In this document: positions 12,651 through 44,245 of the stretch, piece by piece | Position numbering within the stretch: the first letter of the stretch is position 1 | Layout of the letters: the number at the start of each line of letters is the position of its first letter | DNA from: Alphaproteobacteria bacterium | Lineage (GTDB): Bacteria > Pseudomonadota > Alphaproteobacteria > UBA828 | Reading direction: 5' to 3' | Assembly (NCBI GenBank): GCA_965214705.1 | Contig: OZ243972.1 | Coordinates: 3,712,001 to 3,776,000 of the forward strand | Length of the DNA stretch: 64,000 bases | Notes under the pieces: model-generated | Told to the model about the DNA's origin: nothing | Database searches by the model: none | What the model saw: the letters and a program-made list of their open reading frames with translations, nothing else | Position numbers and translations under genes: made by a program

Positions 12651-13280
12651 CGCCATCGCTCGTTTTACCTCTCCGCATTCTCGGCTGAAGGCTTGAAAGT
12701 ATACGCCGATGCGATCCCGCCTGAAGATGAACTCGAGGAACCAGAGGAGGGGCAAGACTTTCGCAGTACTTTACGTCACCAAGCACAATTGACGGTGCTG
12801 GCCTTCAAGACCGGGGTCGCGGTCAGCGCAGACCTGTGGCTCGGTGGCTTCGACACCCACTCCAATCATGATCCCCTCCACGAATGGCTGTTCGGGAATC
12901 TCACCAGCGCGGTCGATTACTTGTGGAACTACGCCGAGGAGCATGGCGTCGCCGATCGCATGGTGGTGGTGATCGGCTCGGACTTCGGCCGCACCAACTT
13001 CTACAATTCCGGGAACGGCAAGGATCACTGGCCGATCGGGAGCTACGTGGTCATGGAGAAGAACCGGTCATGGACCGGGCGCGCGGTGGGCGAGACGGAC
13101 GGCCTGCACTTCGCCTACAAGATCGACCCCACGACGCTCCGCCGCGACGATACCTACGGGACGATCATCTACCCGAAGCACGTGCACAAGGCGCTGCGCC
13201 GCTACCTCGGCGTCGAGAACTCGGCAGGCGCTCTACGCTTCCCATTCAACAATACGGAGGATTTCGCTTTCTTTGTCTGA
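12651..13280 (+). pseudogene. 3' half of a DUF1501 gene (paralog of 37749-39014)
   Basis: GGFDTH, SDFGRT and GKDHW; collinear with the C-terminal ~210 aa of 37749-39014; 5' half replaced by the integrase remnant. Confidence 0.85.
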
Positions 13281-13414
13281 TTAGTCGTGGCGCTTGACAG
13301 TCAAATAAGCTGTGTAATCCCGTTGGCGAGTGCGCACGTTGGCATGGGTGTGATTCTCGTATGGCGATATGCCAGTCGTGATGGCGCTAAAGGATATGGG
13401 CTGGTTCATTTTGG

Positions 13415-14800
13415 TCAAGCAGCGAGTGCCAGGACTTCGGTTGGGCTGATGTTGTCGTTAGCTGGTCCGGATCGGGCGTCCATGAGCGCATCCCATGCCC
13501 GGTCGAAGAGGCCGGATTTGATCAGGGCGCGGAAGGTCAGAACCGCCTGCCCGCCGTCGATCCGCCAGCGCATGCCCGAGCGTTTCAAGCGCTGCGCGAC
13601 GAGGGTCTTGCAGGCCGCCTCGACCACACCCGAGCCGATGGCGATGCCCTCTTCCTTCAGGGCGTGGTAGCGCATCCGATGGCGGTGCTTTCGGAAGAAG
13701 GCCAGCTCGCGCTCGATCTCGGCCGGGTCCCCCTTTGCCCTGTCCAGGAGGTAGCGCAGTGCCCGGATCACCTTGTCGACGCCGCGGGGGTCGTGGCGCA
13801 GGATTTCGCGGTGCTTCTCGAACCAGTGGCGCGCCACCGCATGGTCAGAGGCCACGCGGAGATGCTCGCAAGCGTGCCAGAAGTCGATGACCTCGGTCTC
13901 GGGCGAGAGGCTTTCGAGGAAGGTCCAGTTGTCGGCGGCCCCGTCGGCGACGGCGCCGATCCTGATCTTCGGGCTCACACGGCGGATATGGGCGACCTCG
14001 CTTGCAAGTTGCGCTTTCAGCGCGGCCTTGCCGCTCTCGGGCATACGGCCGAGATAGAGGGTCTTCAGCCGTTGGCCCTCGGCGTCGTGGAAGGAGACCG
14101 TGCCGCAAGAGGCCTCGCGCCAGCACGCCTCGGCACGGCCGTCCTCGCCGGCCCGCAGCGCCACCATGACGCCGTCAAGGGAGACGGACGCGGTGACCGC
14201 ATCGGGCGGTATGCCCTGGGTTTCACGGATGCTGGCCAGCGTCTCCGGGGCGACGCTCTCCCAGTGCTCATGCATGCTCAGGGCCAGGCGCTGCAGCGTG
14301 CTCACCGACGGCGTCATTCCGCCCATTTTCGCGAAGAACTCCTCCGCTTCACGCGGCGTACAGTGGCCCATCATCATCAGCCCGAGCTGCGCCGCCGGCC
14401 GCGTCAGGTAGTCGTCGATGAGGCCCAGGCTCTCGTCCACCGGCACCAGCGACGTGCTGCTCGCGCCGCTGCGATAGCGCGCACGCCGATAGGTCACGGG
14501 ACCGAGCGTCGTCATGATCGTCTTCGGCGTCGCCGCCACCCGGACCCAGCTCTGTCCGTCGCGCTCGATCCGGCTCGCACCGTCGTCGCGGCTCTCGGCG
14601 AAGGCCCCAAGGAGCTTGCAACCCAAGCCGTTCATGGCGTCCCGCAGCCCCGTCTCAACCGTTTCGAACGTCTCGGCAGACGGGTCAGACCCAGCCTGTT
14701 CGCGACAGAACTCCACCACCTGGGCGACCGCTTCGGCGACTTCGGCAGGCAGGCCCAAAAGGTCGATGGACGAGGCGATGAGAGACTGCGACACTGGCAT
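13415..14800 (-). CDS. ISKra4-like (UPF0236) DDE transposase
   Basis: SLDGVMV, VADGAADNW, IDFWHACEHL, IGSGVVEAACK; same protein as 23676-25061; AGGAG RBS before MPVSQ. Confidence 0.88.
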   Translation of the reverse strand: MPVSQSLIASSIDLLGLPAEVAEAVAQVVEFCREQAGSDPSAETFETVETGLRDAMNGLGCKLLGAFAESRDDGASRIERDGQSWVRVAATPKTIMTTLGPVTYRRARYRSGASSTSLVPVDESLGLIDDYLTRPAAQLGLMMMGHCTPREAEEFFAKMGGMTPSVSTLQRLALSMHEHWESVAPETLASIRETQGIPPDAVTASVSLDGVMVALRAGEDGRAEACWREASCGTVSFHDAEGQRLKTLYLGRMPESGKAALKAQLASEVAHIRRVSPKIRIGAVADGAADNWTFLESLSPETEVIDFWHACEHLRVASDHAVARHWFEKHREILRHDPRGVDKVIRALRYLLDRAKGDPAEIERELAFFRKHRHRMRYHALKEEGIAIGSGVVEAACKTLVAQRLKRSGMRWRIDGGQAVLTFRALIKSGLFDRAWDALMDARSGPANDNISPTEVLALAA

Positions 14801-15000
14801 GGGAACGCTCCTGATGTTGGGTCTGATGTTGGGTTGTCGGCGCGGCATCCTACCGCATCTCGCGGTGCGGAGCGTTCCCACCCACCACTGCTGGATGCCG
14901 CCGTTGTGACAAAATCCGGCCCTGCACCGGCCGATTGTCACGAAAACCCGATTCTGGCTGCCTACGGCCACCCGCCAATCGCGCTAAATCAATGACTTAC

Positions 15001-16502
15001 GAGCCACTTGCAAAATTCCGCATTTGAGCGGGATTTTGCCGCCGTGGCGGTCAGATTGTCCTGGAAATCGGGACCGCTCTCTGTTCCTGTCGGGTTTCGG
15101 ACAACGTCGACGGAGAGGGCGGCCCCATGTCGCTGGGACAGACACTATCCGGATTCTGGCATCACATTCAAGCGGATCTTTTCCCGTGGCTTGAGGAGGA
15201 GCTCGGGCCGCTCGGCGAGAGGTACCGGCGCTTCGTCACCGTGCTTGAGCTTGCGCGGGTCGAGAGCTTCCTTCCCCATTTCCATGGCCTGCCCGGTCGG
15301 CCGGTCGAGGATCGGGCGGCCTTGGCCCGCGCCTTCATCGCCAAGGCGGTGTTCGACGTACCCACGACGCGCGCCCTGATCGAGCGCCTTGAGAACGACA
15401 AGACGCTACGCCGTCTCTGCGGCTGGACCTATGCCGCAGAGATCCCGAGCGAGGCGACGTTTTCGCGGGCGTTTGCGGAGTTCTCCGAGAGTGCGTTGCC
15501 CGCTCGCGTGCATGAGGCGCTGATCAAGCAGACCCTCGGAGACCATCTGGTCGGGCACGTCTCGCGCGACTCGACGGCGATCGAGGCGCGCGAGAAGCCT
15601 CAGCCCAAGCCCAAGGCGGAGAAGCCGAAGCGCAAGCGCGGCCGCCCGCGCAAGGGCGAGGAGCGGCCCAAGGAGGAGCGCCGCGTGAAACGCCAGCTCA
15701 CGATGAGCTTGCCCCAGATGCTCGACGACCTGCCGAAAGCCTGCGACGTCGGCACCAAGCGCAACGCCAGGGGCCATACCACATCGTGGATCGGTTACAA
15801 GCTGCACATCGACGCCGCCGATGGCGGCATTCCGATCAGTTGCATCCTGACGTCCGCCTCGCTGCACGACAGCCAGGCCGCGATCCCGCTGGCGAGTATG
15901 ACCGCCGACCGCGTCACCAATCTGTACGACCTCATGGACTCAGCCTATGACGCGCCCGAGATCGGCTGGCACAGCTACCTGCTGGGCCACGTCCCGATCA
16001 TCGACGTCAACCCTCGCGACAAGGAGTACAAGGAGGAGCTGGCGCGCGAGGCCAGGGCGCAGAGAGGCGTCGGTCACCGCCACCCGGCGGACGAGCGCTA
16101 CAACGAGCGCTCGAACATCGAGCGCATCAACGGTGGGCTGAAGGACAACTGCGGGGGCCGCCATGTCCGCGTGCGCGGCCATGCCAAGGTTCATTGCCAC
16201 CTGATGTTCGGCATCCTGGTGCTGACGGTCGACCAGCTGATGCGCCTCCTGGCCTGAGCGGCGCCTCCGTCGCTGTCACGCCGGCACGCCTCCCTCCGCG
16301 GAGGCGCAAAAAGCCATGTCCGCATCGCGACGGCGGGTCCAAAATGCGCCCGCATGGGCATCGGTTTGCGGCGAATCGGCGCCCCGGCGGCAGCCAGCGA
16401 CGTCCGCTCGTCCCGAAGTTCATGTTACGTTCCGACCGTCAATGTCCTCACGCCGGGCTCTCGGGAAAAGCAGACCGCGCCTGGGAGTTTTGCAAGTGGC
16501 TC
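15001..16502 (+). mobile_element. IS5/IS1182-like IS nested near the end of ISKra4 copy 1
   Basis: Perfect 15-bp IR GAGCCACTTGCAAAA; 4-bp TSD TTAC (14997-15000, 16503-16506); the empty site is visible in copy 2. Confidence 0.9.
15127..16257 (+). CDS. DDE transposase (IS5/IS1182-like; family uncertain)
   Basis: PSEATFSR, RDSTAI, GYKLH, MDSAYD, YNERSNIERING. Confidence 0.88.
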   Translation: MSLGQTLSGFWHHIQADLFPWLEEELGPLGERYRRFVTVLELARVESFLPHFHGLPGRPVEDRAALARAFIAKAVFDVPTTRALIERLENDKTLRRLCGWTYAAEIPSEATFSRAFAEFSESALPARVHEALIKQTLGDHLVGHVSRDSTAIEAREKPQPKPKAEKPKRKRGRPRKGEERPKEERRVKRQLTMSLPQMLDDLPKACDVGTKRNARGHTTSWIGYKLHIDAADGGIPISCILTSASLHDSQAAIPLASMTADRVTNLYDLMDSAYDAPEIGWHSYLLGHVPIIDVNPRDKEYKEELAREARAQRGVGHRHPADERYNERSNIERINGGLKDNCGGRHVRVRGHAKVHCHLMFGILVLTVDQLMRLLA

Positions 16503-16586: not shown

Positions 16587-17495
16587 TCATGTAGTCACTC
16601 TGTCAACCAGGTGGCCATGGCAAGAGAGCTCCGAGTCGATGGCAAGATAGGGCGTGTCGCATCGCTCAAGCCATTCCAAGCCATTCCCTTGCTGTTGCAG
16701 CAACGCCACCGAAGCAATGGAACCTGCGACAACCGCCTGGGCCGCAACAACACTGACGCTCAACAGCCCGTCGATGGGCCAGCCGGTCCGGGGATCGATC
16801 AGGTGACTGTACCGTCGTCCTTCTATTTCCATGAATCGCTCATATCCGCCCGAGGTCGCGAGCGCGCCTTCCAAAAGCCAAACCGTGGCAATTGGCGAAT
16901 TCGTCTTCTGCGGATGTACGATGCCGATCGGCCAGGGCTCGTCACTCGCTTGCGGACCGACAATACAGATGTCACCGCCGAGATTGATTAGACCATGGCG
17001 AACACCAAGTTGCTTGGCGAGAACGGCAGTCGCATCGGCGGCGTATTCCTTCACAACGCCTCCAAAATCCAGCTCCATACCCGGCACAGACAGGTATACC
17101 TTCCCATCGGAATGTTGAACCTTGTCCCAACCCACTTTGATCAAACACGCGTCGATTTCTCCGTGCGACGGCAGGGTTTGCCGGCCTCGGTGCCACACGC
17201 GACGAAACACACCCGACGTGATGTCGAAAGCCCCATTGCTTTGCTCGTAGCAAACCGCTGCGTACTTTAGGAGGGAGGCCGTTTCCTCGTCTATACAGGT
17301 GGGTTCGACACCCGCAGCGCGGTTGATGGCCGTCGTCACGCTGTCTTCACTGTAACGAGAATACTTCCTTTCGAAGCGCCTGATTTCTTCAACACACTCT
17401 CGAATCGCGTGAGAACAATCCTCTTCCGTGGGTGCATATAGCCGCAGTTCGCATGGGCAGCCCATCGCAGTGAATCGATGCACGCACGGGACCAA
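16587..17495 (-). CDS. apbE: FAD:protein FMN transferase
   Basis: FTAMG, GAFDIT, LDFGGVVKEYAAD, NLGGD, ATSGGYER, YSHLIDPRTGWP. Confidence 0.92.
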   Translation of the reverse strand: MVPCVHRFTAMGCPCELRLYAPTEEDCSHAIRECVEEIRRFERKYSRYSEDSVTTAINRAAGVEPTCIDEETASLLKYAAVCYEQSNGAFDITSGVFRRVWHRGRQTLPSHGEIDACLIKVGWDKVQHSDGKVYLSVPGMELDFGGVVKEYAADATAVLAKQLGVRHGLINLGGDICIVGPQASDEPWPIGIVHPQKTNSPIATVWLLEGALATSGGYERFMEIEGRRYSHLIDPRTGWPIDGLLSVSVVAAQAVVAGSIASVALLQQQGNGLEWLERCDTPYLAIDSELSCHGHLVDRVTT

Positions 17496-17498: not shown

Positions 17499-18650
17499 CT
17501 AGAACCTGTACTCGAAAGCGACGGAGGCCAGCGTAAAGTTCAGCAGAGCGGGATGTTCAATACCGGACGTGAGCCCGTATTTTTCGCTGGCTCTATAGCG
17601 ATCAATGCTGATCGTGACCGACCAATCCGGAAAATGAATGACGCCCTTCAACCCCGCGGTCACTGCACCGTAGGCAGCCAGGCGAAAATCGCTGGACTGG
17701 GCAACATTCAGCGGCAGGCTAAAATCGTCGATTGAACGGAAAAAGTCGGCGTCTGTCTGACTGTAATAGCGCACATTTGGGACCAGCTGAAATGAAGCGC
17801 CAACGTTCTGATACCACGAGGTATGAAGTGTGTGAGAGGCGATTCCCCAGTCATCCGTGTAGTAGCGATAGTCGACGTGCAACGATGCGCGCAGATTGTC
17901 CAGGAAGCGTCGATAACGCACACCGAGCGCGCTCTCGGTTCGTTTTCTGGGCCGCACGTCGCGAAGCTTGTAGGGGTCCGACAGGTAGCCAGTGTGCGCG
18001 GTAACGCCAAGCCCGGTGAAAATGACGGAGGAGCGGTCGATCACTTGCGACACGCCGAGAGACAGCGATCGACTCTGCCTGCTTTCCTTCAGTATTCGCC
18101 CGAATGCAGCGGCATCGCTCGGCTCAATGGTGTCGCTTGCGTAGCTCAAGCCTGCCGACAATACGGTCAGAGGGCCATTAATTTCCCATTCGCCGGATAC
18201 GGCCACAGCGTCGGACGTATAGTCGTCTTCGTCTGATCGCGTCAGCGTCAATGCTGCGCTGCTATCCTCAAAATAACGGGTGCCCGTCACACTGACTTCG
18301 GTTCTCTCGTCCTGGATCGTGGCCCCGCTCATGATGAGTGTGGGCTTTCCATCGGGGCCCATCACCGTTGCCCACGGAGAGGCGCCAGACATTGTCTCTC
18401 GCGAGACGTCCAATCCTGCGCTCCATTCTTGGCCTACAGGAGTCAGCAACCTGAACTGATGAATGTCGATGTCGTATCGTTGATTGTCCCCGCTCAGATG
18501 CAAGTGCTCGGGGATGTCGGCCTCCTTGTAGTTGGGGGTGCCGATGGAGAGGCTCGTTTCCACTGGCTGTGAATCGGCAAACGCGGGAAGCGAGGTCGCG
18601 GCAATGGTCAATGCCGTCAGAGGAGAAAGGGACTTCAACCTAGTTGCAAC
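17499..18650 (-). CDS. DUF3570 family outer-membrane protein (start approximate)
   Basis: GYLSDPY, YRYYTDDWGIASHT, RYYSQTDADFF, SSDFRL and a C-terminal Phe; two SGA[S/T] motifs; sits between apbE and DUF4266. Confidence 0.8.
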   Translation of the reverse strand, partial: VATRLKSLSPLTALTIAATSLPAFADSQPVETSLSIGTPNYKEADIPEHLHLSGDNQRYDIDIHQFRLLTPVGQEWSAGLDVSRETMSGASPWATVMGPDGKPTLIMSGATIQDERTEVSVTGTRYFEDSSAALTLTRSDEDDYTSDAVAVSGEWEINGPLTVLSAGLSYASDTIEPSDAAAFGRILKESRQSRSLSLGVSQVIDRSSVIFTGLGVTAHTGYLSDPYKLRDVRPRKRTESALGVRYRRFLDNLRASLHVDYRYYTDDWGIASHTLHTSWYQNVGASFQLVPNVRYYSQTDADFFRSIDDFSLPLNVAQSSDFRLAAYGAVTAGLKGVIHFPDWSVTISIDRYRASEKYGLTSGIEHPALLNFTLASVAFEYRF

Positions 18651-18861
18651 CGCATCCGGCGCCCGCCGTCTTCGCGCGACCGCGGGATGCTTCCTTGCTC
18701 TCGTAGACCTGTTCGTAAAGGGCACTCTGCAACATGTTCGGGTCCAACTGCATTTCCGGACGCGCGAGCGAGCCCCACTGCCAGGGAGAAACGGCCTCGC
18801 AAGCACCCAGCGCGAGTACGAGAGCCGCAACCGGCAGGAAGCGTCGCGCAAGGAGAATCAT
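18640..18861 (-). CDS. DUF4266 family lipoprotein
   Basis: Lipobox LGAC, V.PW..G.LARPEM, SKEAS, C-terminal GCGCN. Confidence 0.88.
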   Translation of the reverse strand: MILLARRFLPVAALVLALGACEAVSPWQWGSLARPEMQLDPNMLQSALYEQVYESKEASRGRAKTAGAGCGCN

Positions 18862-19373
18862 GGCTGATCCACCGGCTGCAGACCGAGGAGTTCGTCGATG
18901 TGGGCCCGTATGGCCCTCATATCGCCCGGCTTGAAGCCCTGATGCACCAGCGTGATCCGGCCTTTGGGGTCGATTACGAACGACGTCGGCATGGCCAGCA
19001 GACCATACGCCTCCGCGATTTTGCCATGCGGATCGCTCAAGTTATCGTAATTGACGGAGTAGCGACTCAAGAACCTGGTCGCATCGTCGATCCACTCGTC
19101 CACGCTGATGGCGATGACCGCCAAGCGCTCCTCCCCCAATTCGTATTGCATGACGATCATCTCCGGGATCGAGACTCGACACGCGATGCACCAGGATGCC
19201 CAAAAATCGAGGTAGCGAACTTTGCCGTGGCTTGCCGACAAGGACTTGATTTCCTGGCCATCCAATGTCGGCAAGGTGAAATCGGGAGCCAAATCTCCTT
19301 CCGAGACGGCCGATGCTGCAGCGGTGAACAGGACGCTCAGCGAGAGAATCACCGATAGCAGCAATGCTCTCAT
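18858..19373 (-). CDS. TlpA-family thiol-disulfide oxidoreductase
   Basis: Signal peptide, APDFTL, DFWASWCIAC, MPTSFVID. Confidence 0.9.
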   Translation of the reverse strand: MRALLLSVILSLSVLFTAAASAVSEGDLAPDFTLPTLDGQEIKSLSASHGKVRYLDFWASWCIACRVSIPEMIVMQYELGEERLAVIAISVDEWIDDATRFLSRYSVNYDNLSDPHGKIAEAYGLLAMPTSFVIDPKGRITLVHQGFKPGDMRAIRAHIDELLGLQPVDQP

Positions 19374-19734: not shown

Positions 19735-20292
19735 ATGAACTGGCTACTGTCGGGCTGGCGGCGCTGGCTTCTCGCGGGTTTGGCCTGCTGCGCCACCATC
19801 GCGGCGGCGTACGCGACGCCCGTTCACGTGCCGGAAGTCGATGTGACGGTTCGCTCGGCGCCCGTCGACGCGTTGTCCGGCCACGTTGCCGCTCTGGCAG
19901 CCGGAGAAGATCTTGGGTCCCTGCTCGCGAGCCGGCGCTGGGGCAATGTTCAGCCGTCATCGAAAGAGCCCGTCGAACCGAGCACGCCGGACCCGCAATC
20001 TGCTCCGAGGATCAATCCCGAACTCCTGAAGATGAACTTTGTCGGGTTGATTACCGTGCAGGATCAGCGCACAGTGTTGCTTGCCGTTCCGAACGTCGGA
20101 ATTGAGAGATTTGTCGCCGGCGATACACTGCCGGACGGCCGCGTTCTGGTCTCCGTGACGGACAACAGTCTCACGATCAAAGCGGAGGATCTTCCGGAAG
20201 AGGAGCTGTTGTTGTTCCCCTCCATCGCGAATGACGCACAGCGGGCTGGGAGATCCGAGGCACATGACCAAGATGTTGGGGAGGCGAGATGA
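19735..20292 (+). CDS. GspC/PilP-like T2SS accessory protein
   Basis: Membrane anchor plus FVGLI...VAGDTLPDGRVLVSV; ATGA overlap with gspD. Confidence 0.55.
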   Translation: MNWLLSGWRRWLLAGLACCATIAAAYATPVHVPEVDVTVRSAPVDALSGHVAALAAGEDLGSLLASRRWGNVQPSSKEPVEPSTPDPQSAPRINPELLKMNFVGLITVQDQRTVLLAVPNVGIERFVAGDTLPDGRVLVSVTDNSLTIKAEDLPEEELLLFPSIANDAQRAGRSEAHDQDVGEAR

Positions 20293-22397
20293 GATTTCCT
20301 AGTCCCGCCATTTTTCCGGCCATGCTGGTGGTGGTGATGGGGCTACTGTCGGCATGTGCGGAACTTCGGGTTGACCCGTTACCGGAACCGATCCGCCCGC
20401 CAAAGGAATATGTGTCCGCGGCGCAGGAGGAGCCAGTGCCGGCGGAGGCACCGGTGGAGCAGGAGTTGCGCACGTCCCGAGCCCCGGGGGTGGTGATCCA
20501 GCGTTCGGTGGCTGAGGGCATTACCGACCGGCTGGGCGAAGATCTCTCCGGAAATCCCATCCGCGTCAGCTTTCACAACATTCCTCTTGTGCCCTTCATC
20601 AACGAAATTTTTGGTGAAGAGCTGGGGATGTCGTTCTTGATTTCACCGGGCTTGCGACGCAAGTCGGATCTCGTGACTCTCAAGTTGACGGAGCCACTGC
20701 CGCCGCGCCAGCTCTTTGCGACGGCCCGTCGGGTTCTGCGCGAGTACGGCGTCGACATCGTAGCGGCAGAGGAAGGTATCCTAACCTTCGTTCCGAGCCA
20801 GGACATCGCCTCGCGCGATGTTCCCCTGTTCGTCAGCGGTCGTGCGTTGCCGGATGTTCCGCCCAGCCATCGCGTGATTTTCCAGTTGGTGCAGCTCAGG
20901 GTGGTTCGCGGTCCGCAAGTCCGGGGATGGTTGAGTGCTGCATTCGACCGCCAGGACCTGGAAGTCATCGAGGACCCCGATCGCAATGCCCTGCTGCTCA
21001 AGGGCAACAGCGACATGCTTGCGCGTGCTCTCGCCATGATCGAGGTGCTCGACCAGCCGTTACTGCGCGGGCGCTACGGCGTCATTATCGAACCCGTCTT
21101 CATGCGGTCCCAGGACTTGGCACGGGCGCTGAACGAAGTTCTCAACGCCGAAGGGTATCAGGCGAGCATCGGCACCGGCGGAGTTGGCGGTTCGATTATA
21201 CTTCTCGCCTTGACGGAGGTGGACAAGATGGTCGCCTTCGCGGCAGACCAGGCCACGCTCGACCACGTCGAGCAATGGGCGCGTCTTCTGGATTCCCGCC
21301 GCAAGGAGTCGATCGATTCGGCGGTTTTTGCGTACGAGGTTCTCAATACCCAGGCAGAAGAGCTGACCGATACCCTGAACCGCATGTTCGGCTCCGGTCT
21401 GGCCGGCAAACCTCAGCCGGACGCGATGGCCGCAGGCGAAGGCGAACGGGGGTCCCGGCCCACCGAGGCGCAACCGGCCAGCGCCAGAATCGTCGTCGAC
21501 AAGAATCGCAACATGCTGCTCTTCCGGGGCTCCGGCAAGGAGTGGGCCGAGATTCGAAGCGTGATCGAAAAACTCGACAGGTCCGTGCCGTCGGCGTTGA
21601 TCGAAGTGCTGATTGCGGAAGTCACGCTGTCCGATCAGGAGAAATCGGGTATCGAGTTTCTCTTGAGGGGCAGCGTCGATGACTATGGTCTTGCCGGCAC
21701 GCTGGGCGGCCTGGGTCTTGGCGGCTCAGGCTTGACGGTGACTCTGGACAATGCCGGAGAGACGCGCGCGGCGTTGAACCTGTTCTACAGGGACGACCGG
21801 GTCGTAATCCGGTCTCGGCCGCGCCTTCTCGTCAAGAGCGGTGAGACTGCAACGATCGATGTCGGCAACGAGATCCCTATAATCACACGAATTTCGGAAG
21901 AGGATCGTCAGACCGTCGATTCAGTCAACATCCTGCAGGACGTCACCTACCGCAAGACCGGCGTGCAACTTGAGATCAAGCCGGTTGTACAGGCCAACGG
22001 GCTAGTCGACCTGCAGATTTCGCAGCAACTCAGCGAAGCGCGGCCGACCGCAGCGACGAGCCTAGCGGGCACTCCCACAATCCTGAACCGTCAGATCAGC
22101 ACCAGCCTGACGCTCAAGGACGGCGGATCGTTGCTGCTCGGCGGCCTCATTTCCGGCAGCCAAAGTGCAGGCGAAACTGGCGTTCCCATCCTCGGGCAAC
22201 TGCCAGGGATTGGCCAGCTATTTCGTGCCGACTCCATTCAGGAAGATCGAACGGAATTGCTGATCATGGTGACGCCGTACGTGATCACCAATCACGAAGA
22301 GGGCTGGGAGCTGACGCGGCAGATCCGAGACCGTCTGGACCTGCATTCGTTTATCGCCGACGATCCTGGACCGCCGCTCCTGCCTGGTGGTCAGTAA
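20289..22397 (+). CDS. gspD: Type II secretion secretin
   Basis: Lipobox LSAC; IEVLIAEV, GETATIDVGNEIP, YRKTGVQLEIKP, GVPILGQLPGIGQLF, RTELLIMVTP. Confidence 0.92.
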   Translation: MRFPSPAIFPAMLVVVMGLLSACAELRVDPLPEPIRPPKEYVSAAQEEPVPAEAPVEQELRTSRAPGVVIQRSVAEGITDRLGEDLSGNPIRVSFHNIPLVPFINEIFGEELGMSFLISPGLRRKSDLVTLKLTEPLPPRQLFATARRVLREYGVDIVAAEEGILTFVPSQDIASRDVPLFVSGRALPDVPPSHRVIFQLVQLRVVRGPQVRGWLSAAFDRQDLEVIEDPDRNALLLKGNSDMLARALAMIEVLDQPLLRGRYGVIIEPVFMRSQDLARALNEVLNAEGYQASIGTGGVGGSIILLALTEVDKMVAFAADQATLDHVEQWARLLDSRRKESIDSAVFAYEVLNTQAEELTDTLNRMFGSGLAGKPQPDAMAAGEGERGSRPTEAQPASARIVVDKNRNMLLFRGSGKEWAEIRSVIEKLDRSVPSALIEVLIAEVTLSDQEKSGIEFLLRGSVDDYGLAGTLGGLGLGGSGLTVTLDNAGETRAALNLFYRDDRVVIRSRPRLLVKSGETATIDVGNEIPIITRISEEDRQTVDSVNILQDVTYRKTGVQLEIKPVVQANGLVDLQISQQLSEARPTAATSLAGTPTILNRQISTSLTLKDGGSLLLGGLISGSQSAGETGVPILGQLPGIGQLFRADSIQEDRTELLIMVTPYVITNHEEGWELTRQIRDRLDLHSFIADDPGPPLLPGGQ

Positions 22398-30739: not shown

Positions 30740-30783
30740 TGACCCGTTCGAGACGTTTCTATCCGTTTGCGCCGCACTCCACA

Positions 30784-35151: not shown

Positions 35152-36393
35152 TCACGGTTTCCCCCTGTGGGTCGGCGGCAGCGCCGGCGGGCCGCGCGTC
35201 GAGCGGGGCTCATGGCGGCGGCGGATTTCGCGGACGAGGCGCATGACGCCGCCGCAGTGGGGGCAGGCCACGGGCGCGGTGCCGATCTCGGGCTCTTCGT
35301 CGGGCTCGGCCCGAGCGCCGTCCACGCTTCCCTCGGGGGCGGCGCAGCCGAGGGCGCCGAGAGCCTGGCGTGCTCTCTCCAGCGTGCTGGCGCGGCAGCC
35401 GTTGGCGAGGATGCCGAAGTAGCGAATGCGGTGCATGCCGTCCGGCAGGACGTGCCTCAGGAAGCGGCGGATGAACTCGTCGGCGCTCACGGTGGCGATG
35501 CCGTAGCGCGGCTTTCTCTGCCCCGGCGCCTTGGGCTTTCGGTGGCGGAAGGAGACCGTCTCGCCGTCGAAGGAGACGATGCGGCTGTCGGAGATGGCGA
35601 TCCTGTGCGTGTAGTGCGAGAGGTACCGGAAGACCTGCTCAGGCCCGCGGAAGGGCCGCTTGGCGTAGACCACCCAGTCCCTGGCCCGGGCGGCGGCAAG
35701 CGTGGCGTGGAACTCGCCGGGATTGGCGAGGTGGGCGAGGGTGCCGTGGAACTCCAGGTCCCCCCGGCCGTGGGCGCGGGCGAGCTCCTCGAGGAAGAGG
35801 CGGCGGAACAGGCTGCCGAGGACCTTGACGGGGGCGAGGAAGGTGGTGCTCCCCGTCTTCCACTCGCCACTGTCTACGTCGAAGCCCGCGTTGGGCACGA
35901 CCACGTGCAGGTGCGGGTGGAAGCGGAGCTTCTGATCCCAGGTATGGAGGACCGCGGTGCCGCCGATGCGCATGCCGCCGTGGCGGGGATCGGCGGCGAT
36001 GGTGCGCAGGGTCTCGGCGACGGCCCGGAAGAGGATGTCGAACACCACCCTGCGGTTGCAGAAGGCAATGGCGGCAACCTCCTTGGGCAGGGTGAAGACC
36101 ACATGGAAGTAGGGCACCGGCAGGATGTCCCCGGCGCGCTCCTCGCTCCAGAGGTTGGCGGCGAGACCCTGGCAGGTGGGGCAGTGGCGGTTGCGGCAGG
36201 AGTTGAAGAGCGGATGCTCGCGCCCGCAGCCCTCGCAGGCGTACATGTGGCCGCCGAGCACGGCGGTGCGGCACGCCTCGATGGCGCCCATGACCTTGAG
36301 CCGGGCGGCGTCGATGCGCCCTTTGTGGCGCTCACGGAAAGCGGCGCCGGCGCGGCGGAAGATCTCCGCCACGCCCGCGCGTTCGGCCTCCAC
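35152..36393 (-). CDS. IS91-family transposase
   Basis: CRTAVLGGH, NSCRNRHCPTC, HPHLH (HUH), YLSHY (YxxxY), RIRYFG. Confidence 0.92.
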   Translation of the reverse strand: MEAERAGVAEIFRRAGAAFRERHKGRIDAARLKVMGAIEACRTAVLGGHMYACEGCGREHPLFNSCRNRHCPTCQGLAANLWSEERAGDILPVPYFHVVFTLPKEVAAIAFCNRRVVFDILFRAVAETLRTIAADPRHGGMRIGGTAVLHTWDQKLRFHPHLHVVVPNAGFDVDSGEWKTGSTTFLAPVKVLGSLFRRLFLEELARAHGRGDLEFHGTLAHLANPGEFHATLAAARARDWVVYAKRPFRGPEQVFRYLSHYTHRIAISDSRIVSFDGETVSFRHRKPKAPGQRKPRYGIATVSADEFIRRFLRHVLPDGMHRIRYFGILANGCRASTLERARQALGALGCAAPEGSVDGARAEPDEEPEIGTAPVACPHCGGVMRLVREIRRRHEPRSTRGPPALPPTHRGKP

Positions 36394-36399
36394 GCGCCG

Positions 36400-37278
36400 T
36401 CAGTTGCGCAACGCTGCGAAGCCTGAGATCGGGTGGTCGAGGCCCTCGAACATCTTGCCGGTGACGCGGGCGTAGTGACGGGTCGTGTTCGCGCTTCGAT
36501 GGCCGAGCATGTCCCGGATCACCTCGATATCGCCGCCGCGCTCGAGGAGATGGGTCGCCGCCGAATGGCGCAGGCAATGGAAGGTGTAGCTGCGGTCGAG
36601 CTCGGCAATGTCGCGCGCCCTCCTGAAGGCGGCCTGCAAGGTCTCCGTTGCGATGGGCCTGTCGAGCGAGACGCCGTAGAAGAGCCAGCTCGTCGGACGC
36701 GGCCAGATGTTCCTGTAGTAGACGCGCAAGTAGTGGATGACGATGTCCGGCAACGGTGCCATTCTCTCGGTGCCGCCTTTGCCGGAGGGGATGTGCAGCA
36801 GCTTCTTCTCCGACAGGATGTCGCCGACCTTGATGGCCAAGGTCTCGGAGATGCGGAGCCCGCCGCCATAGCCGGTGACAATGGCAGCACGGTGGCGGAG
36901 GTCGGGTGTCGCAAGGATGAGGTGCTCGACCTCCTGCTCCGACATGTAGCGCGGCAGCTTGCCGGGCTTCTTGCGGGAGCGCAGGCCGGCGACATGGTCA
37001 GGCCAGCCGAGTGTGTCGATGTAGAGGAAGTTCAGCGCGGCGAAGGAGACGTTGGTCGTGCCCGGACTGAGCCCCTTGTCGATCCGCCCCAGGTACCACT
37101 GGCGCACCTGCTCGGCGTCGAGCTCGTCCGGCGAGGCGTCGTAGTACCTGGCCAGGTTCTTGATCTCGCAGATGTAGGCCTTGGACGTGCTCGCGGCCAG
37201 ATTGGCGATGCGGAGCTGCTCCTCCATGCGCTGGCGAAGAGGGGTGACGGTGTTCGTGTCGCACGCGGTCCCGGTCAT
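36400..37278 (-). CDS. Tyrosine recombinase/integrase
   Basis: TPLRQRM, GLRISE, GKGG.ER, HCLRHS.ATHLLE, LGH, HY; catalytic set appears intact. Confidence 0.92.
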   Translation of the reverse strand: MTGTACDTNTVTPLRQRMEEQLRIANLAASTSKAYICEIKNLARYYDASPDELDAEQVRQWYLGRIDKGLSPGTTNVSFAALNFLYIDTLGWPDHVAGLRSRKKPGKLPRYMSEQEVEHLILATPDLRHRAAIVTGYGGGLRISETLAIKVGDILSEKKLLHIPSGKGGTERMAPLPDIVIHYLRVYYRNIWPRPTSWLFYGVSLDRPIATETLQAAFRRARDIAELDRSYTFHCLRHSAATHLLERGGDIEVIRDMLGHRSANTTRHYARVTGKMFEGLDHPISGFAALRN

Positions 37279-37748
37279 TATCGATCTCCCTGGATCGCGA
37301 CGGCGCGCCGCCGGACCGATCCGGCGACGGTCCGTCGCAGGGGTCGATGCTAACCACTGGTGATCGGGAGGCTGCTGGGGATCCGCCACCCGACGGGCGG
37401 AGCGCCACTGACGCAACCGGGAAGCGAACGCACAGAACAAACGGCACCCGCGACGCCTCGGAAATGAATGAACTCTACGCCGCTAACTCCGCGTAGCGGC
37501 TTCGTTCAATACCCATTTCCGGTCGGGCTCAGGCCAACCGGTCCCTGACTTGCCGGGGATTTGGAGAATACAAGTCCGCATGGATACCAATTACCGGCCG
37601 GGACTGGAGCTTCGCATACTCCATGCTCTCGCGACCCATCCCAACAAGCTTATCGTCGATCGTCTCGATCTCAAGCGCCACAATCAGAACGAGGCCTATC
37701 TCGTCCTTATCGTTTCATCCTACTTCGTGGGCGTGGCCACACAGGAAA

Positions 37749-39014
37749 CTAGCTGAAGAAAGCGAAATCCTCGGTATTATTGAATGGGAAGCGCAGGGCG
37801 CCGGCCGTGTGCTCGATGCCGAGGTAGCGGCGCAGCGCCTTGTGCACGTGCTTCGGGTAGATGATCGTGCCGTAAGTGTCGTCGCGGCGGAGCGTCGCCG
37901 GGTCGATCTTGTAGGCGAAGTGCAGACCGTCCGTCTCGCCCACCGCGCGCCCGGTCCATGACCGGTTCTTCTCCATGACCACGTAGCTCCCGATCGGCCA
38001 GTGATCCTTGCCGTTCACCGAGTTGTAGAAGTTCGTGCGCCCGAAGTCAGAGCCGATCACCACTACCATGCGGTCGGCCACGCCGTGCTCCTCGGAATAG
38101 TCCCAGAGATAGTCCACCGCATCGGTGAGGTTCTCGAACAGCCACCTATGCGGCGGGTCGTGGTTCGTATGGGTATCGAAGCCGCCGAGCCAGAGATCGG
38201 CGCTCACCGCGACGCCTGTCTTGAAGGCCAGCACCGTCAGCTGCGCCTGCCGGCGCAGGGAGCTGCGGTTGTCTTGCGTTTCCACCGGTTGCTCGAGCTG
38301 GTCCTCCGGCGGGATGGCATCGGCATAGGCCTTCAGCCCCTCGGCAGCGAAGGAGGAGCCATAGAAGCCTAGATGCATCTCATCCCCCGGCAGCAGGTCC
38401 GGGGTCTCAGAAAGACGCGCCACCGTCGCCGCCCGGTGCGACGCCATCGCCTCCCAGTCCTCATCGCTGAAGAACGACCCCATGTCGTCGATGGGAGAGG
38501 CGATCTCGTGCAACAGACGCGGGTCGTCGAGGCGGGTGAAGCGGGTCAGGCCTGCGGTGTTCGAGAAGCCGCCGAAGCTGAGATAAGGCACCGGAAGGGT
38601 CGGGGCATAGTGGGCGGCGCATAGCGCGCCCAGCGTCGGATAGCCCTCGGAGTTCCGCCCGCTCCAGTTGTGGACGATGCCGACCGAGTGCGCGTTCGTC
38701 TGGGCGTCGACGCCGTTGATGACCAGCATCATGCGGTTATACTTCTCGAAGAACGCTTGGTTGCCGGCGAAAGGGGCATAAGTGAGGTTGCCGGCCTGGC
38801 GGATCTCATCGGTCTCCGCCCAGTGGTTGATGACCTTCTCGCCCGGTGTATTGGCCTTGGGGTCGCAGAAGCTGGTGGGGTCCCAGCCGCCGTCGGCCTG
38901 AACGAAGACGAAGAGCTTGCCGGAATGGTCTGCGGCATGGACCAGCGGCAGGCGGAACCCCGGCGCCGCAGCGGCGAGGGCCAGCAGACCCTTGAGCACG
39001 GAGCGTCGGTTCAT
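37749..39014 (-). CDS. DUF1501 family protein with Tat signal
   Basis: MNRRSVLK; GGWDPTSFCDPK, TNAH, GGFDTH, SDFGRT, GKDHW. Confidence 0.85.
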   Translation of the reverse strand: MNRRSVLKGLLALAAAAPGFRLPLVHAADHSGKLFVFVQADGGWDPTSFCDPKANTPGEKVINHWAETDEIRQAGNLTYAPFAGNQAFFEKYNRMMLVINGVDAQTNAHSVGIVHNWSGRNSEGYPTLGALCAAHYAPTLPVPYLSFGGFSNTAGLTRFTRLDDPRLLHEIASPIDDMGSFFSDEDWEAMASHRAATVARLSETPDLLPGDEMHLGFYGSSFAAEGLKAYADAIPPEDQLEQPVETQDNRSSLRRQAQLTVLAFKTGVAVSADLWLGGFDTHTNHDPPHRWLFENLTDAVDYLWDYSEEHGVADRMVVVIGSDFGRTNFYNSVNGKDHWPIGSYVVMEKNRSWTGRAVGETDGLHFAYKIDPATLRRDDTYGTIIYPKHVHKALRRYLGIEHTAGALRFPFNNTEDFAFFS

Positions 39015-39023: not shown

Positions 39024-42000
39024 CTACAGGTAAAGATACCGGTAATCCATCAACAAGTACGACAGCACCACAACCCATGCCCGCGCTGAATAGTGTACGT
39101 CGGAATAGTTTATACTGTTTATGTAGGCGTCCACGCGATCCCCGTCGAACTCAATAGAGGGTCCCCATTCATTCTGCCGCTCCTGCAAGATATCGTCCAA
39201 AATTCCGTCGAAAAAGTACTTGTCTTCCCAAAATCTACAATCCCAGGGATTAAACCAATCACTTTCCGAACTGGAGCGGCGCTCCGTAACGTCGATAAAC
39301 AACTCAAATGCGGAGTTTACCTCTGGCGAATGTGGCATTACCTCAACGCCCAGAAGTTTGTCATACAGCTCGACCAGCTTGTTCCTAATTGCAGTCGCAC
39401 CGCCGCCAGAAAGTGTTTCATCCAGCACTGCTATTTGCAGCTGCGCAACGTCATCACCAACTTGATCTGCCCGCGCCACGAGTTCAAGCGTGTAGTCTCC
39501 GGCGGCTGAGACTTCGATTGGCGCGTCCACCGAGCCGCTGCAGTGAAGTGCGAAGTGGTCATAGACCGGATGATTGCAATCGCTTACGGGTTCCAGGTTT
39601 TCGAGCTCGTAACTCGCGACAATCCGGCCCGTGGCGTCTCGAATGTCAAGTCGATCCAGACGAACGTGGCGTCCCCTGTCAGATTCGTGATCGTACCAGG
39701 AGTTAAGAAAGCTCATTCTCACCGTGCTGGTGCCCGCCGGCAACGATGCTTCCAGCGAATACGTTTCCCATTCGTCTTCGGCCTCGACATGAAAGAAAGC
39801 GACGTCTCCTTGGTTAGGTATCACATTCGCATCGAAGCCAGCGAACAACTTGCGATCCTCATCCGGCAACAGATAAAGCTCGCGCAGGACTACGGGACAA
39901 CTCGTTCGCACAGCGTGTCTCTTGGCTACACCGGCCATGACAGACGTGATATCCCGCGCTCGTTCGGTGATCCCGTCAGAGTCGATACCGCCGTACAGCA
40001 GGCCAAAAGCCCCGGTCAGTTCATTTGGCAAAGCGTCACAATCGCCCCCGCAGCCGGTATCGACATGCCTACCCCACTGAAAACCAGTTAGAGCGTCCGT
40101 TTTGTGTGCCAACTCCTCAGGTGTCAGCAGGCGTCGGGCGCCCGCATCGCGCAGCGCGACCTTGCGCACCGGGTCCTCGTAGCCGAGCGCATCCGCCCGG
40201 AACCACTTGGAGAGCACAATCTCGACCAGGAGGTCCTTGAGATTGTACCGCGCTCCATAACGGAAGCCCTGCCGGAACCCCGCCGCAAGCCGCCTCACTT
40301 CGGCGCTCTGCGAGTTGGCGGCGAGAAGCTGGCCCACGAAATCGGGGTCACCCTCTTCCGCTGGCGGCTCCGCGACCTCGCTCCCCATGAGCGCCGGCCA
40401 CCAGAACCTGACCGTCGCCTCGGCGAAGCGCGGGTCTGCGACGATCTTCCGCGCAAGCCACTGCAGACCGTCCTCGCCGTCTGGCGCCAGTTCACCGCCG
40501 AAACCCGGAGTCCGCATGTCGCGGTACCACGTGTCCCCCTCTTCGTAGGGGTTGGGGATGACTGCTAGCCTAGCGTAGCCATCATCGCCATAGCGCTCAT
40601 CGTACCCGTTCGACCAGGCAGCCACTTCAACGGTGTAGGGGCCATGTTCGGGAACCTCGACGTCGATAAGAATTTCGCATTCGTAATAATCCCCCCACAG
40701 TCTGAAGTAATCTTCGCGTCCGGTGTCGGGATTACGTGGCTTATCTCCACACACGCCCCAAGACGCGACCGGCGGGACCAAGTCCTCGAACTCCACACGG
40801 GTCACCCGCCGACCCAGCGAATCGAGGACATCCAGACGGTCGAGATACACCTCCCCACCCTCTCGGGCGGCTTCGTCCCAAAAGTGGTTCGGGCGGGCCA
40901 CTTTCAGCTTCTGGATGCCGGCGGCAAGGAACAGCGGCCAACTCAGCGTTACCCGGTCTCGCCAGGAGGTTGTTTCGACATTCAGCTCGGTTCCGAGCTC
41001 TTTTTTGTAGAGTTCATGAAGCGAATCCATGCCGCCCCACTGGTCCTTGTAGAATCCTTCATCGCCGTAGTCTTGGAACGCCCCGGCAACGGGGTCCATG
41101 ACGGTGTGGCAGACGGTGCAGGCGGGGTTGCGCATGGTCGGGTTGTTGGTATCAGCCAAGGCAACCGGGTCCATGGTTCGCGAGGCGGAGTTCTCGATGT
41201 CCACGCCGAGGAAGTGATAGTAGGTCCAGCGCGCCCGCGCCCGGTTGCGGTTGGTGGCCGTCGTGGGATAGCGGAACAGGAATGAGGTCGTGTTGAGCAC
41301 GCCGGCGTACGGATAATCGGTCCGCAGGGAGCCGGGGTCCAAGACACGGGTAGCAAGAAGAGCGGGGTCATATTCGTCCTTGTAGTCTTCACCCCTTCGA
41401 TAATACTTGGAGATCTTCGACGGCTTGAACTCGTGCCAATCTTCAGGATCGTTGAATCTCGTCGTAGCCCCATAGGCTCTGGCCGCAAATGGATTGGCCA
41501 TGATGTAGTCGGCCGTCAGGATCTCCGTGTACGGAAGATCGTTCTCGACAATATGGGCAATCAGCTCTACCGGTGCTCGTCGGAAGCCATGTTGGACTTG
41601 GTTCCACCAATTCCAGTATGACGCCCAGTCATCACTCTCAACTGCAAGCTTCGTACGTCTGTAGCTCTCATTGACGAAGTCAACAAAGAATCCCGCATTT
41701 GGATCAATGACGGCCCCCCCCTGTCCGTCAGCAGTCTGTCATTCGCGCCTCGGATGAGGAAGTCGTGGAACTCTGGTCCGGTCATCATGTTGCGGATGGT
41801 GGAGCGCAGCGCCGTCGGGCTGGCATAGATCGAGGCGTACTCTTCATCCGTCGGGATGCGGCCCGCGAATATCAGCGCCGCGCGGCGAAGCGTCTTGCGC
41901 AACGGCGCCATCTGCACAGGATCGAACAGCGTCTCAACCGTGATCACCGCTGGCACAACGTCCGCATCCAGACGGCCAAGGAACTGCTCCATCTGCGCAA

Positions 42001-44245
42001 AGTCCGCAGTCCCCGCCAGCACCTGCGCACCGCCCCCGTGCGACACACCCTGGATCTTGCTCAGGATGAGAGACGCCCCACTTTCGACCTCCGACAGGAA
42101 GGCCTCAAAGACCTCCAGGTTCAACGCCTCGTGGTCAGGCGTCGTGGACGGCACGAACACCAGCCGCGTGTTCCCCGACACGCCGCCTTCCACATGGCAG
42201 GCAATGCACTTCGACTGAACCACAGCCTCAGAGATGTGCTGGCTGAACAGAGCAGAAGGTCCGTCCAGATGCTCAAGGAACCGCTCCATCTGCGCGAAGT
42301 CCCTGCTCCCCGCCGGCACCTGCTCGCCGCCGCCATGCGACACACCCTGGATCTTGTTCAGGATGACCGAGGTCCCGCCCTCCATCTCCGACAGGAAGGA
42401 GGCGAAGGCCTCCAGGTTTAACGCTTCGTGGTCAGGCGTCGAGGAGCGCTCGAACACCAGCCGCGTGTTCCCGGACACGCCCCCCTCCACGTGGCAGGCG
42501 ATACACTTCGACTGCACCACAGGGCCAGAAATCCACTGTCCAAACACCGCCGCAGCCGTCGCCGTGTCCCCAGACCCTCCCGATGCGTCCGCCAGCAGGC
42601 CAAGCGTGGCGTTCGGTGCCGTCGACAGGTTCGCGAGATGCCCGCTCGGACCAGACAGCAAGTTCATCACCTTAAGACGCCGGTTCGCACTCACCCCCAG
42701 GTGCCATTCCCCATCGCCATCGCCGAGCGAGCCGGAAAGCCTGCTCCCCGTGCCCTCTTCGAGATCAGACACCGTCACCTCACGCGACGCGCCCGCCGCC
42801 AGCGTCAGCTGCACCGCGCCGCCAGCCATCGCGCCCGTGCCGTCAACCCCCCGGATGATGATCTCCGCCTCCGTCGCCGAAGGATTGATCAGCCGGAGCT
42901 TCCCCGTCTGCCCCGGTGTCTCCGCCGCATCCAGCAGCGTCACCTGATGACCCCACGCCCGGCGCGGCACCAGGTCGTGCATCGCCGACAGAAGTCCGTC
43001 CTGAACCCCCAGCGGGTGGACATAGGAGAGAACCGCAATGTCGAGAGAGGTGCTCAGCCGCAGCCGCCAGTCCCCGCTGCCCGCGCCCGTGCCCACGGGA
43101 AGTCCCTTGCCCGAGCTGCCCCCCTCAAGCTCGCCCGAGTTGATGACGAGGCTTTCCAGCGCGCTGAGCCGCAGCGTCACCGGCCCGTACGACGTGCCCG
43201 TGTCGTCGACCGCCTCGATCTCCACCCGGCCGAACTGGTCCGTGCGGTTGACGATGCGCAGCACGCCTTCGAGCTCCGTGCGCGAGGCCGAGGGGAACAG
43301 CCCCACCGTGTGGATCGTCGTCGCCCCGTCGCCGCCGTCCACCGCAGCAACCGGACCGCTCGACAGGTTGCTCATCGCCCCGCTGCTCGAACTCACCAGC
43401 AGGTTCATCACCGCGATCGGACGGTCCGCCGTCACAATCAGACGCCACCGACCCGACCCATCGCCGAGCGACCCGCTCAGACCATCGCCGTCCCCCGTCT
43501 CAAGCTCGGACGCCGTGACCATCCGCGACGCCCGTGCCGGTAGAGACAGGCGCACGGCTCCACCCGGCGAGGCGCCCTCATCATCGATCCCCTCGATGGT
43601 CACCGCCGCCGCCATAGCGCCGGGGTTGATCAGGCGCAACCGGCTCACCTGCCCGGTGGTGCTCGCGGGATTGAACAGAGCGATCCGGTACCCCGAGCCG
43701 CCCTGCCGCACCACGTCCTGCATCCCGCTCACCAGACCGTCCTGCGTCCGGGCGTAGGACAAGACCTCGATATCCAGGGTGCTGCTCAGCTCAAGGCGCC
43801 AGGCTCCTGTGCCCGCGCCGATGCCCGCGCGGAAGCCCGTCTCCGCATCGCCCTCCTCCAGATCGCCGGCATCGAAATGCACCGTCTCGCCCGCGCCGAT
43901 ATCCAGCGTCACCGGGCCATGGCGCAGGCCGGCGTCGTCGTAGGCCACGATGCTCACCGTGCCCGCCGACATCGCATGATTGATGATGCGCACATGGCCG
44001 ACGCTGCCCGTCGCCGTCGACTGCGTGAGAAGCGGCACCGTGAGCGTAGAGGACGCACCTGTCGAGGTCGTCGCCGTGCGATCAACCGCGCCATAAACAA
44101 ACGCAGCGGACACGCAAAGAACTCCGGCGAACACCACAGGGATCGCCAGAGACTTGCGCAGGCCTCGTATCAGTCGCCACGGATGTAGCCCCGCGACCGC
44201 AGCCAGCCATGTTCTTGCCAGCATCCTAACCTGCCAGCATCTCAA
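39024..44245 (-). pseudogene. Large secreted modular protein (~1,740 aa) with three CxxCH motifs and a DUF1588/1592-like core; out of frame at a G8 tract
   Basis: Two track ORFs (41567-44245 and 39024-41501) join if one G is added at 41714-41721; TLRRAALIFAGRIPT, AGVL...YPTTATNRNRARA, CTVCHTVMDP, CIACH twice. Confidence 0.75.
41975..42545 (-). repeat. Intragenic tandem duplication, 297-bp period (CIACH domain)
   Basis: VVQSKCIACHVEGGVSGNTRLVF..S.TPDHEALNLE...KIQGVSHGGG.QV.AG..DFAQME.FL occurs twice; CGACACACCCTGGATCTTG at 42041 and 42338. Confidence 0.9.

Follow-up and report, generated by a model that had tools for sequence, protein, structure and literature searches.

The window analysed here, a 64,000-nucleotide stretch of the genome of an alphaproteobacterium (G000 below), contains an island in which the genes of a type II secretion system (T2SS) lie against those of a DUF1501 protein and of a large secreted c-type cytochrome, the N-terminus of which carries two copies of a 230-residue unit. 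The T2SS gene set C, D, E, F, G, H, I, J, K, L, M and O is complete in content. On the forward strand run a gspC-like gene (19735..20292), gspD (20289..22397; PF00263/PF03958), which encodes a secretin with a lipoprotein-type signal (LSAC) and scores 283 bits against TIGR02517 (cut-off 351), the prepilin peptidase gene gspO (22607..23305; PF01478), the ATPase gene gspE (25131..26810; PF00437), gspF (26817..30177; PF00482 in both of its halves), gspG, H, I, J, K and L (30143..34500; PF08334, PF07963, PF21687, NF037980) and gspM (34497..37756; weak NF040576). Neither gspC nor gspL matched any Pfam or NCBIfam model; their names rest on position and on same-slot homologues, which for gspC precede gspD in related loci. 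On the reverse strand lie the gene of a DUF1501 protein with a twin-arginine signal (37749..39014; PF07394, weak PF10518, R4 invariant in 31 homologues), the cytochrome gene (39024..44245) and, on the other side of the T2SS, a cassette made up of the flavin transferase gene apbE (16587..17495; PF02424, E 4e-70), a DUF3570 gene with two SGA[ST] flavinylation motifs (17499..18645, start approximate; PF12094, E 7e-59), a gene for a 73-residue DUF4266-like protein with a C-terminal CxC (18640..18861) and tlpA, encoding a TlpA/ResA-like thioredoxin (18858..19373; PF00578 and PF08534, with NF002854 under its cut-off).

At the left end, a broken tyrosine integrase gene (11785..12696, forward; Pfam Arm-DNA-bind_3 and Phage_int_M), which is frameshifted and present in many genomic copies, abuts and truncates the 3' half of a second DUF1501 gene (12648..13280, forward, residues ~214-420; PF07394). 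This half is the remnant of a left cytochrome/DUF1501 pair, is 88% identical in amino acids to the right copy and matches the junction between DUF1501 and apbE in the second copy of the island, described below. Many relatives of the integrase are scattered across G000. Two adjacent multicopy insertion sequence (IS) elements follow (13345..16502; PF06782, and PF01609 with PF05598), each with many near-identical copies. All the parts named in a preliminary description of this DNA were thus located in the order given there (truncated DUF1501, apbE-DUF3570-DUF4266-tlpA, gspC-M, DUF1501, CxxCH protein), including its divergent region of ~360 bp, with the starts of tlpA and gspC 361 bp apart, and its 8-bp overlap of stops, the gspM stop ending at 37756 and the DUF1501 stop beginning at 37749.

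The window copy is broken at several points. IS elements interrupt gspE near its start (23452-25131, forward), cutting the gene off from its first codons, gspF (27772-29933) and gspM (an IS91-like element at 34841-37509); both halves of gspM are contained in a single 197-residue open reading frame (ORF) of a Candidatus Binatia (Binatota) genome, G002. The cytochrome gene consists of two ORFs (41567-44245 and 39024-41501), because the reading frame shifts by one base within eight consecutive G (41714-41721). The protein with three CxxCH motifs that had been described from the window exists in intact form in a second island copy (1747 residues, C1:2004218-2009461, C1 being the contig of G000 that holds this copy), and not as one gene in the window. 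The second copy (C1:1,991,572-2,009,486) comprises this cytochrome gene, DUF1501, an apbE remnant, gspC to gspK, with gspE and gspF intact, and a cut gspL. Its apbE remnant is fused to the region upstream of gspC, the equivalent of window positions 17278-19558 being missing, and its gspL is interrupted by the same IS91-like element as gspM in the window. An intact gspM is absent from the whole assembly and therefore the T2SS machine is probably dead in G000.

Public contigs from four of the 22 listed runs (X2, X5, X6 and X7, with X2 possibly of the same source as the window) were compared with these sites. The frameshifted allele was matched without gaps in X2 and X6 contigs, and one X5 contig (depth 7) had one extra base. 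An assembly error was considered as the cause of the frameshift and is unlikely, since the X2 and X6 contigs agree without gaps, X2 with the proviso just given. The G run may reflect slipped-strand switching or simple decay. Joints free of the gspM element were found in X2, X5 and X7, three of the four runs, and joints free of the gspF element in all four, where the joint might derive from the second copy. G000 has undergone a very large IS expansion, in which at least four IS types have each reached dozens of near-identical copies.

That the island is mobile, as the preliminary description had proposed, is supported by three results: a GspD of this type is absent from 20 congeners (0/20), a DUF1501 of this type is absent from 60 relatives (0/60), and the second copy lies beside tra and integrase genes. 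The GC content is 57-65% in island segments and 67% in the flanks. We conclude that the island is horizontally acquired and decaying. The region next to the second copy (C1:1960001-1984200) encodes an F-type cluster (TraE, K, B, V, C, W, U, N, F, H and TrbC), together with an S24-type repressor and two integrases, and is probably an integrative and conjugative element.

The cytochrome is made up of a signal, the two units, two haem domains, a helical core that resembles DUF1588 and holds a third CxxCH, and two inserts resembling carbohydrate-binding modules (CBMs). Against PF07627 (PSCyt3/DUF1588) it scores 25.7-26.1 bits with a cut-off of 27, and three of the five homologues scanned lie above that cut-off. 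A model of the C-terminal 1085 residues of the second-copy protein (mean predicted local distance difference test, pLDDT, 82.7) shows a haem domain, the helical core with the third CxxCH and the two beta inserts, the second of which resembles CBM-like jelly rolls (best Z 9.9) and matches CBM60. Foldseek and VIA searches with this model matched the beta inserts only, the helical core being barely covered; matches to Cry toxin and BIRC6 structures were disregarded because of TM-scores below 0.1. The haem domain matches positions 31-144 of the RoxC model NF051462 with 38.5 bits against a cut-off of 900 bits, so that the likeness concerns the N-terminal haem domain, the third-haem domain of RoxC (PMC10837239, excerpt), and the rest of the model is unmatched. 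Haem-lyase family genes are present in both G000 and G002. Three haems combined with glycan-binding-like inserts make a polymer-directed redox enzyme seem a likelier function than a Shewanella-type electron conduit.

By its clan, DUF1501 is a candidate metalloenzyme of the alkaline-phosphatase superfamily. Its conserved residues are D45, D280, H282, D337 and H338, and a PDB profile search gave no match; nothing useful came from PDB profile searches with the unit, the cytochrome core or two S-layer-like families introduced below either. Of 45 DUF1501 loci fetched, 34 contain the full-length gene and sufficient DNA ahead of it; in every one of these a cytochrome core lies upstream of DUF1501. 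The DUF1501 tree groups G000, G002, L137 (a metagenome contig) and L003 with a support of 99. Modules of DUF1501 and Planctomycete-type cytochromes, of unknown function, are described in excerpts of PMC3542564 and PMC5615132 for bacteria of the Planctomycetes-Verrucomicrobia-Chlamydiae group. The island likewise sets a Tat-exported DUF1501 beside a CxxCH protein with carbohydrate-binding-like domains, but differs from the PSCyt1/2-PSD1 modules in these excerpts by its divergent PSCyt3 (DUF1588)-like core, extra haem domains, S-layer-derived units and link to a T2SS. Two further loci were recorded. L006, from a Gemmatimonadaceae metagenome-assembled genome (MAG), has two head-to-head cytochrome-DUF1501 pairs with ~40 unit residues left, through rearrangement or assembly artefact, and L038/L179, from a Myxococcota MAG (G033), has a unit-less pair directly after the gene of an unrelated secretin of GspD type, where a link to a T2SS may have arisen independently.

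The unit itself, which the preliminary description had missed, occurs twice at the cytochrome N-terminus (unit 1, 43352..44044; unit 2, 42614..43312; both reverse) and consists each time of two ASRT/TM1070-like beta-sandwiches. An AF2 model of unit 2 (pLDDT 94) shows both sandwiches; in VIA the first half aligned with 1nc7 (TM1070) at Z 10.2 (rmsd 3.0, 100 aligned) and with 2ii7 (ASRT) at Z 9.3 (rmsd 3.2, 96 aligned), the next match being at 6.0, and Foldseek returned no match at E<=0.001. The Asn that closes strand 2 in each half is nearly invariant (N22) or invariant (N143). DUF5719 matches are seen in 44/59 units at E<=1, and a comparison with an atlas led to unnamed clusters, with DUF5719 the nearest named family and recognition below threshold. 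As in the ASRAH superfamily (PMC2739507, excerpt), the unit has the ASRT/TM1070 fold and the strand-2 Asn, and occurs as dyads or tetrads in secreted proteins; binding of sugars or small molecules by that superfamily is a prediction only in the same excerpt. The unit is, however, none of the three families described there (ASRT, TM1070, actinobacterial/Chloroflexi forms): it does not have the Trp with which strand 1 begins (its consensus is HxVPLFP / HRVxxFNP), and it is a terminal module on very diverse passengers, tied to S-layer proteins and to a T2SS.

A hidden Markov model (HMM) of the unit matched 3,671 protein clusters at E<=0.001. Among the top 150 matches, 125 have a unit block no more than 120 residues from the start or 30 from the end, and 138 when the limit is set at 300 residues. 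The passengers, identified in 15 of 16 locus proteins and in 29 of the 45 scanned among the top 150, include leucine-rich repeat (LRR), fn3, cadherin, reprolysin, trypsin, papain, leishmanolysin, spondin, SRCR and FGE-sulfatase domains. No plasmid match was found. An analogue is the C-terminal domain of the type IX secretion system (PMC4804311), also a terminal beta-sandwich on many unrelated secreted proteins, which differs in belonging to another secretion system, the unit being found at either end and its export role being putative. No description of the unit or of the island was found in the literature searched; the architecture list of PMC2739507 lay outside the search and may bear on novelty.

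We then placed the T2SS by GspD trees (27 rows in the main tree, 40 in a quick tree, with the published P. tunicata GspD outside them). The secretins of the mobile islands form a distinct subclade (100/100), comprising both G000 copies, G002 and the loci L137 and L138, and this subclade is nested within S-layer-associated T2SSs (100/99). Excerpts of published work describe the Slr4 and NpdA genes as following gsp clusters (PMC7821379, PMC10765051) and an Aeromonas T2SS of this sort as dedicated to the S-layer (PMC3658858). Like these S-layer-dedicated systems of Pseudoalteromonas tunicata (Slr4), Paracidovorax (NpdA) and Aeromonas (VapA), the GspD clade usually has a Slr4-like gene as neighbour: of 19 gammaproteobacterial genomes with the unit that were examined, 14 encode a secreted protein of 470-670 residues directly after gspD, and in three of the other five, which were searched, it is present elsewhere. 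PF19526, the Pfam family of Slr4, is carried by 33/75 homologues of this gspD-downstream family. The mobile subclade, in contrast, lacks the S-layer gene, has its own gspO, another gene order and cytochrome/DUF1501 neighbours. The gspO gene lies within the cluster in G000, G002, L137 and L138 and was not found in the gammaproteobacterial clusters examined, and searches of G000 and G002 with three S-layer queries (family A4, family A5 and PF19526) found no S-layer gene. Here A5 denotes the S-layer-like proteins of the gammaproteobacterial hosts themselves and A4 a related family of ~555 residues, the gene of which occupies the slot after gspD in G501 and G718, followed by glycan genes; G726 has the start of an A4 gene there. 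The T2SS of the island thus appears, from trees and gene neighbourhoods, to be a descendant of an S-layer exporter whose mobile subclade lost that gene. Related T2SSs in G499, G593, G630, G722 and G753 (L161-L168) have no S-layer-like gene after gspD.

The A4 family also connects the unit with S-layer proteins. The C-terminal domain of A4 proteins is a homologue of each half of the unit (hhalign 96.3% and 96.0%, E 2e-9 and 4e-9), the unit HMM scores at least 15 bits on 82/89 A4 members, with a maximum of 1.9 in a reversed control, and weak unit matches fall at positions 270-327 of the Slr4 profile. A4 proteins (L173:733-2436 and L175:635-2296, with 89 homologues that include Cellvibrio, Alkalimarinus and Stutzerimonas) are an unannotated secreted family and are probably S-layer proteins largely missed by the Pfam Slr4 model.

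The linkage of the T2SS to the cytochrome/DUF1501 pair, on which the preliminary description relied, holds in one mobile subclade (G000 twice, Binatia and L137), but not beyond it. In G002, the 12 gsp ORFs are all full-length and are flanked by two DUF1501 genes and three cytochrome genes. On L137, the genes for cytochrome, DUF1501, gspO, gspE and gspF are co-oriented in a single gene run. A metagenome-contig search with gspD returned only five loci. A T2SS dedicated to the cytochrome is not the general rule: the nearest DUF1501 is at least 200 kb from gspD in eight of nine chromosome-level gammaproteobacterial genomes with this GspD clade, and 40-55 kb away in G028. The subclade with its unit-tagged cytochrome and DUF1501 is to all appearance a self-contained mobile kit; the T2SS lineage (S-layer type) and the ApbE cassette are known.

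The unit and this T2SS clade occur together over a wider range. In a comparison set of 40 genomes, chosen via DUF1501 and mostly related Gammaproteobacteria, the unit is found in 28, in up to at least 61 copies, and the T2SS clade is present in 25 of these 28 and in 0/12 unit-free genomes, the genomes being kin. In G000 and G002 all units (four and six, respectively) are accounted for by cytochromes beside the T2SS. The unit was absent from 400/400 other Alphaproteobacteria. Several related records and runs carry the label sponge metagenome, and most of the related MAGs are, going by their names, presumably sponge symbionts.

The ApbE cassette has a different distribution. ApbE, DUF3570, DUF4266 and a thioredoxin-like gene form a described cluster, in which DUF3570 carries two flavinylated motifs (PMC8238504, excerpt), and the island shares with it the four genes, both SGA[ST] motifs and the CxC end of DUF4266. 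The DUF4266-like ORF ends GAGCGCN; it had no NCBIfam match and is named by its slot, its slot homologues and this CxC end, in line with the family description in the same excerpt. DsbD is not adjacent in the island, as in 316 clusters of that study, and a DsbD/CcdA-family gene lies elsewhere in the genome. In contrast to the published cluster with its DsbD-type thioredoxin, the island cassette adjoins DUF1501 and, in G000 only, a T2SS; it faces gspC in that genome alone and is mostly deleted in the second copy. No description of a T2SS next to DUF3570 was found in the literature searched, outside which lay the cluster table of PMC8238504, which may bear on novelty. DUF3570 was found in 11/40 genomes and in 6/28 of those with the unit, and not in the other 22, which include G002, the genome with the closest intact island. 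The cassette adjoins a DUF1501 gene or fragment in five of the six unit-bearing DUF3570 genomes (G000, G004, G005, G028 and G039); these neighbouring cassettes are 57-72% alike to that of the window and may represent one inherited junction. In the other six DUF3570 genomes, DUF3570 is on other contigs or more than 1 Mb from DUF1501.

From the gene content, linkage, trees and unit homology we infer the following course. A horizontally moved T2SS of the Slr4/NpdA/VapA type would have shed its S-layer gene, acquired a prepilin peptidase of its own and come to travel with a cargo pair. The cytochrome would be exported by Sec, receive its c-type haems from the maturation system of the host and then be passed by the T2SS to the cell surface; the N-terminal units, derived from an S-layer C-domain, would make it a T2SS client, either as a signal for recognition, as an anchor at the surface or in both ways. 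Once on the surface, the cytochrome would most likely act on glycans or polymers bound by the CBM-like inserts through haem-dependent redox chemistry, with the Tat-exported DUF1501 as a putative partner enzyme that stays periplasmic or is carried along, and the ApbE cassette would be a known hitch-hiker. That this T2SS travels with unit-tagged cargo and exports the cytochrome is, on this evidence, likely. More tentatively, and short of being probable, we suggest that the unit is a portable, S-layer-derived T2SS export tag, which at either end of a protein would route unrelated proteins through S-layer-type T2SSs. As part of the same guarded proposal, the T2SS and its tagged cargo would move between phyla as a plug-in surface-display kit, and the cargo would range from cytochromes and proteases to the 'eukaryotic-like' proteins with LRR, fn3, cadherin and spondin domains found in sponge-associated bacteria.

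Several observations speak against the course inferred above. The unit/T2SS co-occurrence is not independent, because the 40 genomes were picked through DUF1501 and are mostly kin; three of the 28 unit-bearing genomes, all fragmented (G008, G026 and G039, the last an alphaproteobacterial MAG), have units and no such T2SS was found in them. Among 300 further genomes from the order of G017, the unit occurs in three, of which two have a related GspD and G685 does not, and 10 of 12 genomes in that sample with a related GspD have no unit. DUF1501 itself bears no unit, nor do the cytochromes of seven loci from other lineages (L029, L030, L032, L034, L035, L037 and L038), six of them in genomes without this T2SS, and therefore the cytochrome/DUF1501 pair does not need the unit everywhere; a close cytochrome of a Latescibacterota MAG (L010, G007) likewise has no unit, in a genome without this T2SS. 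The unit is exclusively internal in 12/150 top matches and only weakly similar to the A5 C-domain (hhalign 16% and 32%, controls <1%; 0/71 at 10 bits). The Slr4 Pfam family PF19526 matched 0/19 gspD-downstream proteins scanned and A4 is linked to Slr4 via one member, therefore we only infer the term 'S-layer' for these families. Finally, the window copy is probably dead.

These points leave room for other readings. The unit could be a pure surface anchor, binding lipopolysaccharide or capsular glycan or docking to a p4 S-layer as a single-chain mimic of a four-fold node, with export depending on other features and the T2SS linked only since all the cargo is extracellular. ASRT/TM1070-like domains occur as dyads and tetrads in secreted proteins and are predicted sugar binders (PMC2739507, excerpt), two units make four domains and the Slr4 lattice is p4 (PMC7821379, excerpt), and the S-layer T2SS is bordered by glycan genes in G501 and G718. 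However, the searches of G000 and G002 yielded no S-layer gene, though G002 keeps six units and an intact T2SS, and the unit is distant from the S-layer-like C-domain of the hosts' own A5 proteins, which weakens docking to a lattice and not anchoring to glycans. We regard the anchor as a serious contender, if somewhat short of an even prospect. The island could also be chance cargo without a functional link: an integrative element would have taken up the T2SS, along with unrelated genes next to it, from a gammaproteobacterial region with many genes for secreted proteins. The genome is full of IS elements, both island copies are decaying, and G028 offers a plausible donor layout, with cytochrome, DUF1501, ApbE cassette, other unit proteins and T2SS within ~70 kb. 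Yet in three different arrangements the cytochrome/DUF1501 pair still adjoins the gsp genes or lies among them, at 60-83% identity, gspO was acquired as the S-layer gene and the other unit proteins disappeared, and G002 is intact with three cytochrome copies; chance cargo is thus unlikely.

The preliminary description had read the T2SS, the ApbE cassette and the cytochrome/DUF1501 pair as a single module for assembling a haem/flavin redox complex of the cell surface and exporting it. A role of TlpA in haem attachment is conceivable, and the cassette's place beside DUF1501 in five of six genomes would fit such a module, but the shared junction may have been inherited once and DUF3570 is otherwise unlinked to DUF1501. 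The three-part complex was not borne out and we rejected it: the cassette is separable, having not been found in the 22 unit genomes noted above, G002 among them, and being deleted in the second copy, it has its own substrate in DUF3570, and a conserved [ST]GA[ST] motif was not found in the cytochromes, 17/35 ORFs of more than 900 residues having none and the rest differing in its place. We therefore hold it very improbable that the ApbE cassette is functionally tied to the other two parts, and consider it a known hitch-hiker.

How a T2SS chooses its folded substrates is a long-standing open question, and to our knowledge no general modular signal is known. The unit is a candidate for such a signal, or else for a Gram-negative surface anchor: a discrete domain found in ~3,700 protein clusters, which would descend from the C-terminal domain of the ancestral S-layer cargo and has come with the machine into an alphaproteobacterium and a Binatota genome. 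It suggests a route by which sponge-associated bacteria may display host-like repeat proteins and proteases. If it is an anchor only, the unit is still an unnamed, greatly expanded surface module.

Further features of the window and its host were recorded. Beside the IS in gspE, the GspE N-terminus (25203-25310) weakly matches an MshE-type cyclic di-GMP-binding motif (NF053729, 21 bits). Two hydantoinase/oxoprolinase A-B pairs flank the island (4554-8668 and 45882-49660), and its flank also holds a gene for a beta-keto acid cleavage enzyme (10624-11550). Short intergenic repeats resembling repetitive extragenic palindromes are common to two distant sites, 4436-4562 and 59873-59980. The host genome has a GcrA gene, on which its reading as an alphaproteobacterium rests. 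Just upstream of the cytochrome gene, at 44265-44425, lies an element of ~157 bp resembling a miniature inverted-repeat transposable element, with ~18 near-identical copies in the genome.

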